Source: Eledone cirrhosa (lineage: Eukaryota). From it: DNA of 64,000 bases. Where the stretch lies: assembly GCA_964016885.1 (NCBI GenBank), contig OZ024741.1, forward strand, positions 375,906,001-375,970,000, given 5' to 3'. The notes below the pieces were generated by a model, which saw only the letters and a program-made list of their open reading frames with translations, was not told the origin of the DNA and did not search any database. This document shows, piece by piece, positions 1,679 to 24,409 of this stretch. The stretch's first letter is position 1, and the number at the start of each line of letters is the position of its first letter. Position numbers and translations under genes: made by a program.

Positions 1679-1893
1679 GAAGGTGAAGCCACGCTTCTTA
1701 TCGCCTCCAGTCTTTTTCAACAGTTTACCTCGTTTTCAACCGTTCTAAACCTTTTATTCAAGTTTCAAACTTGATAAAAGTTTAGAAGAAGTGACCCACC
1801 TAATACAGGGGTTCACTCGTAAATAATACGGCACCACTTTATGGCGTGTCGTATTGTGTAAAAATATTATTTGCAAAAAAAATTTCTTTCAAC

Positions 1894-3983
1894 ATGGATA
1901 ACACAAGAAAGAGAGAGAGCGCTGTCAGACAACACAGAGAGAGAGGGAGACTTTGTCAACATATCAACAAGACAGCGTTCCAGCGAAGGTAAATTTAAAA
2001 GAAAATATTACGAAGGAAAAGAGAAACGATAGCATTTTTAATGATATTGTTACAGATTTAAAATTACCAAATATTTCTAACACAAACAACACCAACAATA
2101 ACACCAACAACAACACCATCAATAACAACAGCAACAACAAAAATAACAACAGTAAGGTCGAGAATGACAATAACAATGACAATAACAACAGCCACAACAG
2201 CAATAATAGTAGGAACAGTATCAACAAAAACAACAATAATAACAACAGCAACAGTATCAACGAAAACAACAACAACAGCAACAACAGTACCAACGAAAAC
2301 ATCAACAATGACATCGATACCTGTAACAGCGATCTCAGCACCACCAGCAGGACCAGTAGCGGCAGCAATAGTCGTGCTGCTGAAAAAGGGACCACTTCTT
2401 TTGCAGGTGTCGCCCTAAATATCGAAACAGTGTTAGTCACAGACGAGGAGATGGCAGTCGCAAGAACCATGGTGACAAGAAACGCCAATAGAGTTTCCTT
2501 GAAACCTCTACCCGATTTTTTCAAGGACCAGCAGCTACGGGCGGTAACGTACCGCACCGTAAGCTAAATGTCAAATAGGGTGGCGAGAGCCACGGAGGCT
2601 CAAATCCAAAAGGTCTTGGGGTGCGTCTGGGCACACAAAACCCACATCACCCGAGGCAGAAAGTATGCCACAGTAGACGTACTTTTAGCCACCCCCCAAG
2701 AAGCGAAGTCTCACTATTTGGAAACCCTGAGGAGTGAGGAGATAGTCTTGGTGCCCTCCTACTGCGGGCAGAAAATTGTGAGGGTCAAAGTGACCCAGGT
2801 CCCACCCAACGTGCCCATTCCTTGGCTGGCCGCGTCTGTCCTTGCTGGAATCTAGGACAGGACAACCATGCTGCAAGTAGAGAAAATAGAGAGAGAGAGA
2901 GAGAGAGAGAGAACTGGTCAGGTATAGGCATGCAAATGCTTATACAAACTGACCAGGAATGTATCGACACTATCCCCGATATCATAGACATCGAAGAAGG
3001 ACTCCAACTCCCTATAAGCGTAGAAGGAAGACGGCCAAAATGTTATCTCTGTGGGTCAAAGGCCCTTTGACCCACTGAGGTGACCCTTTGACAAAGGGTC
3101 ACCTCAGGGCCTTTTGCCCGCAGAAGACAGCAAAGAAGAAGGCCCCTCTCCTTCCAATACCTGGTCCGCTGCTACCAAGAGCAGGTCAGGCAACAAACGC
3201 AGGAGCTCCTTCCACGGTGAGTAGGAGGGCAACGTCCGTGGCATCCGTACCAAGGCCACGGACAACTAAAGCAGCAGCATCAGTGGCGGCAACACCAGTA
3301 GCTACATTTGCAGTAGCTGCACCAGCAACAAAATTGCCGGAGAGGGCTCCACTACCACCACCAACAGCAGTGGAGCTCATACCCCTCCCAGACGCCACGG
3401 AATCTGACATGGAGTATGAGGCGGGAGGGTGTGGAAAACGGTCTGCCACAGAAACAAAAGAGGAAAAACCCCTTAGCTTAACAAAAGTGAAGGCAGACAA
3501 CGAGGGGTAAAGGTTGCAAGGAGACTTGCAGCAACACCACCAGCATCAACATCACCACCACAAGCATCACCACCAACAACAACCACACCACCACCAACAT
3601 CACCAAAAACACCAACAACGCAAACAAAACAAAACACACACCCAACAGCAACAAGAAGAAAACAGCAACAAAATCACTCTTCCACCCAAAAGGTACACAG
3701 CCATAAACATGACAAATAAAGAACTCATACAATATATAAAGCAGCACACAGACATCACAGAAAAAACTACTACACCCCACCAAGAACTCTCCCGACAAAT
3801 ATAAGCATCATTGATATCAAAATAGAACAGTACAAACTTTTAAAATAAAAATTCCCCAACGCAGTTGGACACTTCAGAGGGTCGGTTACCAAGAGGATAT
3901 ACACTGACATCCTCTTGGAAACCCCCATGACCAGTCAAAGGGACGGTTCTACTGTCCCTTCACTACACGATCAAGGTAAGTGA
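1894..3983 (+). pseudogene. Tx1 ORF1 (Asn-rich N-terminus, CCHC zinc knuckle), broken by stops and frameshifts
   Basis: ORF pieces 1953-2567, 2568-2855, 2822-3070 and 3088-3510 are colinear with 18908-20152; CYLCGSK/GHLRAFC knuckle. Confidence 0.85.
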
Positions 3984-4015
3984 TCCTTTCTCACTTGCCC
4001 CGTTTCTCATCCAAC

Positions 4016-5853
4016 ATGGCCGTACTTAGAATAGGCAGTATTAATGCACGTGGCCTGGGGTGATCTTGGAAGCAGGGTCACCTGCTCAACGACCACAGGT
4101 CACTAAACATAGATGTGGTGGCCATCAGCGAGACCAGAATCTCCGAAGCACGAGCCTTCGCACCGATCTTCGACGGCTACGATGTATACGCATCTCCCAG
4201 CCGTCCAGGATCGGGGGAGGGGTAGCCGTCCTTTTTCGGAGAGGCTTGGATCTCGCCATACGGGCCATCTTCCTGGGCCCAGAAGGTAAGTCTGTGGCGC
4301 TGGACATGACCGGCAGCGAAGGCAATGCTTTCAGGCTAGTAGCCGTCTACGCCCCAACTGGGGCAGGACAGCCAGATTTCTTCAGACGTCTAGAGACCTT
4401 TCTTGGAACGTCCCGCTTAGTGGGCGACTGGAACGGTAACTTGGATGCACACTGGGATTGTGTGGGGCTAGTGGATATGGTAGGAGGGTGCAAGAGCCCC
4501 ACCAACCTGCTCAGACGTTTTGAACTGTCTGACAGGTATCGACTGGATCACCCGAATGTGCCAATGTGGAGATGGACAAACCGCATCGGGTCATCCAGAT
4601 CGTATTCTGCAGAGAACTAGATAAATTAAAAATAGTCGACTACACAGACCACAAATTTGTGATCTGTGAGATTGACATAGACAGACTTCATAGACAAGGA
4701 CCTGGTTACTGGAAGCTGAAGCGTCTTTCCCGGCGCGCAAAGCCTACATAGACAGTATTAGCGTATTAGTTAAGCGGGCTTTGACGGGAGCGGTCGTCAA
4801 CAACAAGTGGTGGTTTGCCCTGAAAAGGGCAACTAAAGTAGAGTCGATTAGGTTTAGCAAAGAGTAGCGAAAGAGGAAAATAGAGTAGAGGGAGAGCTAG
4901 TCAGAAAGCTAGAAGAGGCGTTTAGGACAGGTATCGCAACCGCCGTGCTTGCGGCGATATTGGCACTCGACCAATTCTTCAACGCAAAACACGAAGACTG
5001 CGTTGTCAGAGCTAGAGCGCCTGCTCTGAAACACGAGGGGACGAAAGCCGTCCAATGGGCCCGGGTGGCAGAGGTGCGACGTGGCAACAAAGCCATAATT
5101 CGGTCTTTGTCTGACCAAAATGGGTGCGTGTTGCTCGAACCCGAGCAGATGTGTGAGGCTTTTCAGCAGCACTTTGCTGAACTGTTCGGGAGCAGCTGGG
5201 CACCAGTATCGGTGGAACATCCACCTCGGCATTCTATAGAGGACTAGTGGAGAGGAAGAGCGACGACGTTCTCGGAGAGAACCTGGGCGTCGAAGAAGAT
5301 CAGCTGTTTTCTCTCTTCCGGAGAACTTTCAGCCCAGGGTCTATGGATAACTTCCAAAAATCCCTGGCCTGGCAGTGCTACCGAGGAGCGTTGCCGGTTC
5401 GAGATAAGCTCTACAGGCACGGAAGTGCCGTCAGCTAAGCCGAGGTGCGCGCAGAGCGACGAAACCGTCGTGCACGCACTCGTTCAGTGTCCGAGCATTG
5501 CTGACTTGTGGAGCTATGTCGAACAGTTGCTGTCGCGTGTAGGACTGATCCGGTTATCGACTGAGTCCATTGTGCAGATGGTCTCGCCGTCTTCCTTCGA
5601 GGAGTAAGGGCAGGCGGTTTTCATCTGCCTGGTGGCCATGGCGAAAGAGATTGTGTGGTGGACAAGGTTGAAAGGGTTAAAGACAGATACTTTCCTCTTC
5701 GGCGAATCCCTAGTTAACTTTTTCAAGTTTCACTTGAAGAGGAAAATCAGGGTGAAGAGTCAAGTGCTACCTTCTAGCAAGTTTGTTGAAAGGTGGGTGA
5801 ATGTAGCGAGAATGGTCCGAATGAACGGGACCGCTCTGAATATGCGCCTGTAG
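4016..5853 (+). pseudogene. Tx1 ORF2 remnant: APE endonuclease plus C-terminal zinc finger, no RT
   Basis: VYAP, GDWN, YTDH, GPGYWKL motifs; PRC..DETVVHALVQCP; homologous to 15005-18420. Confidence 0.88.
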
Positions 5854-23619: not shown

Positions 23620-23662
23620 TATTATTATTATTATTATTATTATTATTATTGTTATTGTTATT

Positions 23663-24305
23663 CCTTGAATCTCAGTCATTGATGTTGGTTAACTGGAAAG
23701 TCCGTTGGATTGAATATCAAGCCACTACCTGCAGCCTCAGATATTCAGGACGTATCGGAGGGTTCTTGCTGTTCCAAGCAAGCATGCCTTTTGAAGCGTT
23801 CCAAAAAGCGTGAAGGGGCCGATTTTCTTTAACCATCCCTGGAAACTTTTGGAGATAGTCCCCAGTGCGCCTATGACAATCGGGATCACTTTGACTTCAT
23901 GGCAGTTCCAAATCGTTTTCACCTCCCACTTTAGGTCCTGGTATCGGTTAATTTTCTCCCTCTCCTTCTCTTGCACTCTCGTGTCGAACGGGCAGGCCAT
24001 ATCCACAATCAGGCACGATCTTTTTTCTTTGTCCACAACCACCAGGTCAGGTCTATTGTGTTCCAGTTTTTTGTCCGTCTGTATCTTAAAATCCCATAGC
24101 ACCTTCACCTGATTGTTCTCCATCACCGCCTCTGGCCTATGCTCATACCATTTCTCAGAATGTGGTAAATTGTTTACTTTGCACAGGTGCCAGTGGATCA
24201 CCCTGCCCATCACATCGTGTCTCCAGCCCTTATAGTGGGTCTGGGCTAGGTGTTTACACTCGGACACAATGTGAGCCACAGTCTCCTCTCTCTCTCCACA
24301 GATCC
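23663..24305 (-). mobile_element. Short 5'-truncated copy of the second R4/Dong family
   Basis: Near-identical to 21027-21669. Confidence 0.92.
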
Positions 24306-24409
24306 TTATTATTATTATTATTATTATTATTATTATTATTATTATTATTATTATTATTATTATTATTATTATTATTATTATTATTATTATTATTATTATT
24401 ATTATTATT
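24306..24409. repeat. (TTA)n microsatellite, right border of the LINE array
   Basis: Direct reading. Confidence 0.97.

Follow-up and report, generated by a model that had tools for sequence, protein, structure and literature searches.

Two LINE groups with different predicted nucleases share (TTA/TAA)n microsatellites in opposite orientations in the octopod Eledone cirrhosa

Introduction

How do long interspersed nuclear elements (LINEs) of two groups come to stand side by side in one microsatellite, each group in a single orientation? The question is raised by a 64-kb stretch of the 3.0-Gb genome of Eledone cirrhosa (contig OZ024741.1, positions 375,906,001 to 375,970,000), here called the window, on which all positions are based unless a locus number (L) is given. 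Its array of LINEs spans 1679-24305, followed by the end of a short interspersed nuclear element (SINE) to 24473, and consists of five L1/Tx1-type pieces, all on the plus strand, and three R4/Dong-type pieces, all on the minus strand (Table 1). An initial annotation of the window had proposed that two clades with different endonucleases share one (TTA/TAA)n target in opposite orientations, and that each insertion regenerates the target for the next. All of the pieces that it listed are present. Its statement that they meet at (TTA)n spacers holds for six of the seven internal joints and for both outer flanks of the array; the joint at 6151/6152 is free of a spacer, and that at 12642-12832 consists of (TTC)55(TTA)8.

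Results

Target and polarity of the two groups across the genome

The background was taken from twenty 10-kb stretches (200 kb) at round coordinates, in which 0.17% of positions lie within 6 nt after (TTA)3. A 21-mer from the 5' end of Tx1C, the full-length Tx1-type LINE of the window, matches the genome 1687 times, in 1570 cases directly behind an exact (ATT)3 and in no case within 4 nt behind (TAA)3; all five inspected ends without an exact (ATT)3 proved to follow imperfect TTA runs. The 22-mer from the 3' end has 6552 matches and is followed by (TTA)3 in 5330, by (TTC)3 in 25 and by the opposite-strand repeat in two. In a second Tx1 subfamily, whose head differs, (ATT)n precedes each of 11 copies, and three distinct Tx1 heads were seen, all after ATT. 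The R4 elements give the opposite picture, with (TAA)n on both sides. Their heads match the genome 466 times, with the opposite-strand repeat in one case, and a TAA run lies upstream in 29 of the first 30; the 3' ends of the family R4B have at least 4110 matches, none with the opposite-strand repeat, and TAA-type tails in each of the first 30.

Truncated heads behave in the same manner: TAA precedes 60 of 71 in R4 and TTA none, and TTA precedes 19 of 37 in Tx1 and TAA one. Four kinds of hit were excluded from this count: those below 85% identity, those that a rule flagged as internal deletions, R4A heads that fall into the 5' region, which is variable, and heads of Tx1C at 1840-2140. Over 470 distinct repeat runs, drawn from all loci of this genome, the polarity was as expected at 330 of 331 R4 junctions, 207 of 210 Tx1 junctions and 63 of 64 SINE junctions; these loci were found through the elements themselves and so measure polarity, not frequency. 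The target and the fixed opposite polarity are therefore real, genome-wide and nearly strict. The clade-strand polarity that had been read from a single array is borne out by this tabulation, in which orientation is non-random, Tx1 copies begin after (TTA)n and R4 copies after (TAA)n, so that the repeat is not just a tail.

Polarity flips were observed at palindromic (TAA)n(TTA)n joints, for example between two R4B copies lying tail to tail (L185:8681-8740, L188:9182-9250, L199:65-115, L363). At L203, L213, L215, L216, L194 and L195, Tx1C adjoins, tail to tail, another repeat family, which has a (GAA)n tail, stands in the Dong polarity and is presumably RTE-like by its motif.

Identity of the two groups and of their nucleases

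Tx1C carries ORF1 (open reading frame 1) followed by an ORF2 with an N-terminal apurinic/apyrimidinic-type endonuclease (APE), a reverse transcriptase (RT) and a C-terminal CCHC motif, which is the plan of L1/Tx1 elements. It matches the Pfam families Exo_endo_phos, RVT_1 and zf-RVT, and the APE catalytic residues N, E, Y, D, N, D and H are all intact. Against sequences of known structure its RT scores 75-76 bits with L1 ORF2p and 49-57 bits with R2, and the best matches of its endonuclease are L1 endonucleases. The R4 pieces match R2 structures only, for R4B including the C-terminal PD..D..K region, and have the R4/Dong plan of one ORF with RT, CCHC and a C-terminal restriction-like endonuclease (RLE). 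Judged by sequence, the two groups thus carry nucleases of two different predicted types, APE and restriction-like, in agreement with the initial annotation, and the phylogeny that it had called for, a 29-row RT tree, places them fully apart.

Within this tree the Tx1-type group splits three ways in an unsettled fork. In one of the arms stand three loci (~39% identity), unnamed and flanked by (TC)n, the Kibi target, together with fish and turtle proteins. Among named sequences, the nearest to the Tx1-type RT is a protein of Argonauta hians (71%). None of the matches given by homologue searches and a cluster look-up was named as Tx1, Kibi, Koshi or Dong, and an atlas look-up gave generic endonuclease clusters only. 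The labels Tx1 and Dong are accordingly based on domain layout, target and an indirect placement in the tree. A metagenome scan yielded distant relatives only (at most 47% identity), and (TTA)n of more than four units was found in none of the 24 best. For a divergent N-terminal Myb/SANT domain in the R4 elements, Pfam gave no match up to E 10; its detection in Dong/R4 elements required HHpred (PMC7998251). A hepatitis delta virus (HDV)-like ribozyme was found neither in 15 R4 heads, with a descriptor of our own that lacks a positive control, nor in the search against Rfam.

The two Dong-type families are 36-51% identical in protein and share a 5' head, with 76-86% identity over the first 330-480 nt (R4B heads of L150, L155, L157 and L193 compared with R4A at window 11460-12641 and L141), which suggests an exchange of heads or promoters. 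A Tx1 origin of the R4 5' region was considered and rejected, as the search gave low-complexity matches only and one 44-nt SINE piece. This piece, a SINE 3' end with its hairpin, lies in sense orientation inside the R4A 5' region of most copies (L141 862-905), and the R4A copy of the window (~11700-11760, minus strand) appears to have lost it. Among the Tx1 elements, a hybrid subfamily combines its own head with a Tx1A-like ORF1 (~72%) and a Tx1C ORF2 (95%), with a fixed junction just before ORF2 (L122, L189, L196, L203, L207, L210, L211, L216, L218-L221).

Arrays are common and consist of independent insertions

Clustering was counted over the first 55 Mb of sequence C1, among the matches listed. 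Here 34 of 99 neighbouring Tx1C ends lie at most 20 kb apart (3.5 expected), 33 of them parallel, and 26 of 44 R4B ends lie at most 20 kb from a Tx1C end (3.1 expected), all 26 antiparallel. Tx1 and R4 LINEs make up 20,233 bases of the 200-kb sample (~10%), with a mixed Tx1/R4 array in four of its 20 stretches, and 11 of its 25 runs of at least five units adjoin a Tx1 or R4 LINE. The far side of the run is another Tx1 or R4 element at 21 of 30 R4 heads and 18 of 30 R4B tails; this is roughly as expected from the share of runs that border a LINE. Attraction beyond the supply of target need not be invoked.

The window array itself was built over time. Tx1-type LINE A is its oldest piece, with ends 88-92% identical to the nearest sampled copies, and identity to the nearest sampled relatives runs from ~89-92% on the left to 99-99.5% on the right. 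The two R4 pieces on the right, R4B and R4C, show 3-5 differences to copies elsewhere and ~10 in 674 bp to each other (BLAST). The pieces are thus independent insertions of different ages, and tandem duplication was rejected as the origin of the array since the pieces differ in age and R4B and R4C have closer copies elsewhere.

Joints without a spacer, between truncated copies of Tx1 and R4 or between two Tx1 copies, were seen at L092, L113, L194, L212, L237 and L354 as well as at window 6151/6152, and are probably deletions across a shared run.

Target renewal probably differs between the groups

The claim that each insertion regenerates its target takes a different form in the two groups: R4B has an inherited tail, whereas Tx1 and its likely SINE add at most ATT(A) at non-repeat sites, and for Tx1 the target is probably renewed by splitting of the run and target-site duplication. 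An inherited CAA unit is present in the tails of 25 of 30 R4B copies, so the R4B RNA is likely to bring a few repeat units with it. At L208 (a minisatellite), L203 (next to unique sequence) and L206 and L205 (CTA or TTG runs), Tx1C contributes ATT(A) and no more. Renewal by a tail is limited to the Dong-type R4B. For Tx1C, renewal would come from target-site duplication and slippage. The duplicated length differs between copies: the one at L186 is flanked on either side by ~24 bp that include a unique CG mark, and the one at L208 by at most 7 bp.

A SINE with the 3' hairpin of the Tx1 elements

The SINE has a tRNA-like head, in which we take certain motifs to be the tRNA boxes, and a 3' end similar to that of Tx1. 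A CTTGT loop is common to the 3' hairpins of the Tx1 families and the SINE, on stems that are specific to each family: AACC/GGTT in Tx1C, GCC/GGC in Tx1A, GGCC/GGCY in Tx1B and GGC/GCC in the SINE (seen in 108, 10, 8 and 97 ends). Three of the four hairpin pairs show compensatory change on both sides, and the covariation score of 0.43 exceeds all six slid controls and is matched by 3 of 500 shuffles. It is likely, from this comparison, that the SINE borrows a Tx1-type RT by way of the shared hairpin. The SINE adds no tail at non-repeat sites; duplications of 8-25 bp were found at 27 of 67 such sites, and 21 of the 27 begin with ATTA. Insertions also occur in (TA)n and in plain AT-rich sites.

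A non-repeat hot spot in Tx1C ORF1 has received six SINE insertions (L129, L130, L135 twice, L193, L215), without tails, with duplications of ~2-20 bp and with differing truncations; the empty site is at window 14688-14707.

Discussion

A model for shared use of one repeat

In target-primed reverse transcription, a (TTA)n right flank implies priming on the (TAA)n strand, and the reverse applies to Dong. We consider it likely that the APE-bearing Tx1 and the RLE-bearing Dong-type elements share (TTA/TAA)n, that their opposite orientations follow from the strand on which each primes, and that arrays grow through the repeat left on both sides of an insertion. This accommodates the demonstrated target, polarity, clustering, difference in nuclease type and independent ages. 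Tx1 would prime on the nicked (TAA)n strand, its RNA end of about ACAUU(A) pairing with a few primer bases, and its first nick would fall inside ATTA, probably at the TpA step. In Dong-type elements, a short (UAA/CAA) tail would serve for priming on the (TTA)n strand. One run would become two, for the Tx1 machinery by a target-site duplication of ~10-20 bp and for R4B by the tail borne on its RNA, and slippage would then lengthen the runs. With about half of the long runs bordering an element, further insertions could extend the arrays without extra attraction. A wider proposal, which we hold only tentatively, is that the APE clade, the RLE clade and the SINE form a mutual target-amplifying system, in which strand-specific nucleases act on one A+T repeat and each insertion doubles the landing site for all three. 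Such a system may have built about one tenth of the genome of this octopod, together with around half of the long (TTA)n loci in it, and would include an animal L1/Tx1-type RT that reads a 3' hairpin and not poly(A).

Several observations weigh against this account. The nick sites were inferred, and the two informative Tx1C copies disagree on the length of the duplication; Tx1C copies beside (TTC)n show none. At the 3' end, 1222 of the 6552 Tx1C matches are without a perfect (TTA)3, and 11 of these on C1 that were inspected comprise five mutated TTA runs, one TTC run and five cases of other repeats or unique sequence. Seventeen of the 37 truncated Tx1 heads have no (TTA)3; judged by eye, these are artefacts of the library, runs that are imperfect or places where Tx1 joins R4 directly. 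The only clear reversals are two short Tx1 3' ends (41-44 bp) inside (TAA)n (L342:1275-1315, L364:1479-1522). The hairpin stem is only 4 bp long and was scored over nine related rows. Finally, the SINE has (TTA)3 upstream in 17 of 97 copies and is far less TTA-specific than Tx1C; another Tx1 family may thus serve as its helper.

Alternative explanations

Genomic copies fit a choice of strand by the nuclease or by pairing of RNA and primer, and polarity alone is therefore no proof that the enzymes have converged on opposite strands. The polarity could arise from such pairing only, with both nucleases nicking TpA on either strand; we regard this as rather doubtful. Both strands of (TTA)n carry TpA steps, the ATTA start of 21 of 27 SINE duplications fits the RNA end, and the SINE enters (TA)n and plain AT-rich sites as well. 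However, the specificity of Tx1C (1570/1687) is far above what pairing over 4 nt would predict, the six SINE copies at one non-repeat site in Tx1C ORF1 suggest a site preference of the protein, and target choice has been attributed mainly to the endonuclease (Takahashi and Fujiwara 2002, via PMC4494074).

Much less probable is a reading in which the elements themselves bring the repeats, as tails or leaders, and the arrays are tandem duplications or pile-ups at hot spots. The inherited CAA tails of R4B (25/30) and local duplications at L196, L208 and L042/L043 are of this kind. Yet the repeat also precedes 5'-truncated copies, from which any leader is gone; Tx1C and the SINE have no tail at non-repeat sites (L203, L208); three different Tx1 heads each stand after ATT; and the window pieces range from ~89% to 99.5% identity to their nearest relatives, with R4B and R4C closer to copies elsewhere than to each other. 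This explanation is largely refuted. A Koshi-like identity of the Tx1 family, as a (TTC)n element of relaxed specificity, is also improbable, if slightly less so. The target of Koshi is (TTC)n (PMC3812793, PMC4494074), and (TTC)3 directly follows 25 Tx1C 3' ends, but these are 25 of 6552 (0.4%), TTC occurs at the 5' end of one of 1687 loci, and TTC-flanked copies with visible heads have (ATT)n at the head. At the six loci inspected, the end of another, GAA-tailed repeat family lies beyond the repeat. TTC was accordingly rejected as a second Tx1 target as too rare, and the (TTC)n target that characterises Koshi is not that of this family. Sharing of (TTA/TAA)n between Tx1 and Dong-type elements thus remains our preferred explanation.

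Relation to known systems

R1 and R2 place an APE and an RLE element in one locus, the 28S rDNA, at separate sites, in the same orientation and without multiplication of the target. The likeness to the present case is the pairing of APE and RLE on one locus; here the two are opposite in orientation and use the same repeat.

Dong elements have an RT and a restriction-enzyme-like (REL) nuclease, target (TAA)n and occur in insects, molluscs and cnidarians (PMC7998251, PMC3812793), although PMC3812793 puts Dong among the APE types, contrary to the REL nuclease given in PMC7998251. Dong-R4 families have recently been active in Octopus vulgaris (PMC13282606). Our R4 pieces resemble Bombyx Dong, DongAg, DongBg and the ostracod Dong in their single ORF with RT and REL and in their (TAA)n target, and differ in that two families share a 5' head and interleave with an APE element. 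Bombyx Dong has an HDV-like ribozyme (PMC3774820), of which our unvalidated descriptor found none here. Among APE-type elements, Kibi at (TC)n, Koshi at (TTC)n and crocodilian Tx1 families at (TTCC)n/(TTTC)n use a pyrimidine-led microsatellite strand (PMC4494074). Our Tx1 family shares with these the APE type and a microsatellite target, and has unnamed (TC)n-flanked loci as neighbours in the RT tree; it differs in the A+T-only (TTA)n, the cephalopod host and a site shared with an RLE clade.

A parallel in arrangement is that of TRAS and SART, two families that insert in opposite orientation into one repeat, (TTAGG)n, and form arrays (PMC10088271); SART1 requires at least three repeat units (PMC7265360). 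Both belong to the APE-bearing R1 clade and are telomeric, whereas here APE and RLE elements meet in dispersed microsatellites at thousands of loci. For the SINE, a stringent SINE-LINE pair in a monocot L1 lineage likewise has a common 3' stem-loop with compensatory changes (PMC3747384). SINEU, mobilised by Tx1-Mar, shows the target preference of a Tx1 family and tandem copies around the duplication; it ends in poly(A), and no LINE with the SINEU-1 3' end is reported to have been found (PMC4494074). The present SINE, in contrast, carries the Tx1 3' hairpin and no poly(A).

In the literature that we covered, which includes few subscription journals and was available in part, we met neither a Tx1 element that targets TTA nor APE and RLE elements paired on one microsatellite, nor an octopus SINE coupled to Tx1. 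The Dong half of the system is known behaviour. The TTA target of Tx1, the antiparallel use of one repeat by two nuclease classes and the SINE linked by a hairpin appear to be new forms of known kinds, each habit by itself having precedent in Dong, Kibi and Koshi, or TRAS and SART. They add (TTA)n to the targets of microsatellite-specific Tx1 elements and provide a natural pair of unrelated nucleases at the same three-base repeat, suited to part swaps on a single substrate that ask whether the endonuclease or RNA-primer pairing decides on site and orientation. For work on cephalopod genomes, the consequence is that LINE junctions underlie many (TTA)n markers and that polarised arrays take up a sizeable share of the genome.

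Composition of the window

Table 1. Features of the LINE array and its flanks in the window.
Feature	Position	Strand
Left flank (ATT)4, preceded by (GTAT)18	1667..1678	+
Tx1-type LINE A: ORF1, APE endonuclease; RT lost by internal deletion near 5190	1679..6151	+
Tx1-type LINE B, 5'-truncated; abuts LINE A without (TTA)n spacer	6152..7536	+
Spacer (TTA)5	7537..7551	+
3' end, 161 bp, of Tx1A-like copy	7552..7712	+
Spacer (TTA)5, common to Tx1 and R4A, tail to tail	7713..7727	+
R4/Dong-type LINE A (R4A), near full length; 5' region ~1.2 kb	7728..12641	-
R4A broken ORF: RT, CCHC, PD-(D/E)xK-type nuclease motif	11459-7873	-
Spacer (TTC)55(TTA)8 between R4A head and Tx1C head	12642..12832	+
Tx1-type LINE C (Tx1C), full length, broken	12833..18668	+
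Tx1C parts: ORF1, APE, RT, zf-RVT, 3' hairpin, AATAAA	within 12833..18668	+
Spacer (TTA)9	18669..18697	+
Tx1-type LINE D; internal deletion ~20148	18698..20997	+
(TTA)6 and TTG-containing units: inherited tail of R4B, other strand	20998..21024	+
R4/Dong-type LINE B (R4B), 5'-truncated, young; up to 99.5% identity to copies elsewhere	21025..23617	-
(TTA)10 and TTG-containing tail of R4C	23618..23660	+
R4/Dong-type piece C (R4C; family B), 5'-truncated	23661..24305	-
Right flank (TTA)34	24306..24409	+
tRNA-derived SINE 3' end (64 bp), Tx1 polarity, then (TTA)5	24410..24490	+

An Rfam scan of window 1500-25000 gave chance matches only, driven by repeats. Four sequence runs that were inspected comprised contigs only, in which transcript ends were absent. 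Outside the array, the window holds three copies of an element that we take to be Penelope-like from a GIY-YIG-like motif (35483-37174, 37901-39610 and 59898-61860); their ends coincide with (TA)n runs or lie close to them. Two of the three make up an inverted pair, and the segment 61635-61775 is palindromic almost throughout. A minisatellite with a 27-bp unit in ~25 copies occupies 43047-43744, and a 600-bp inverted repeat pair with 96% identity lies at 52328-53793 and is related to 62830-63218.

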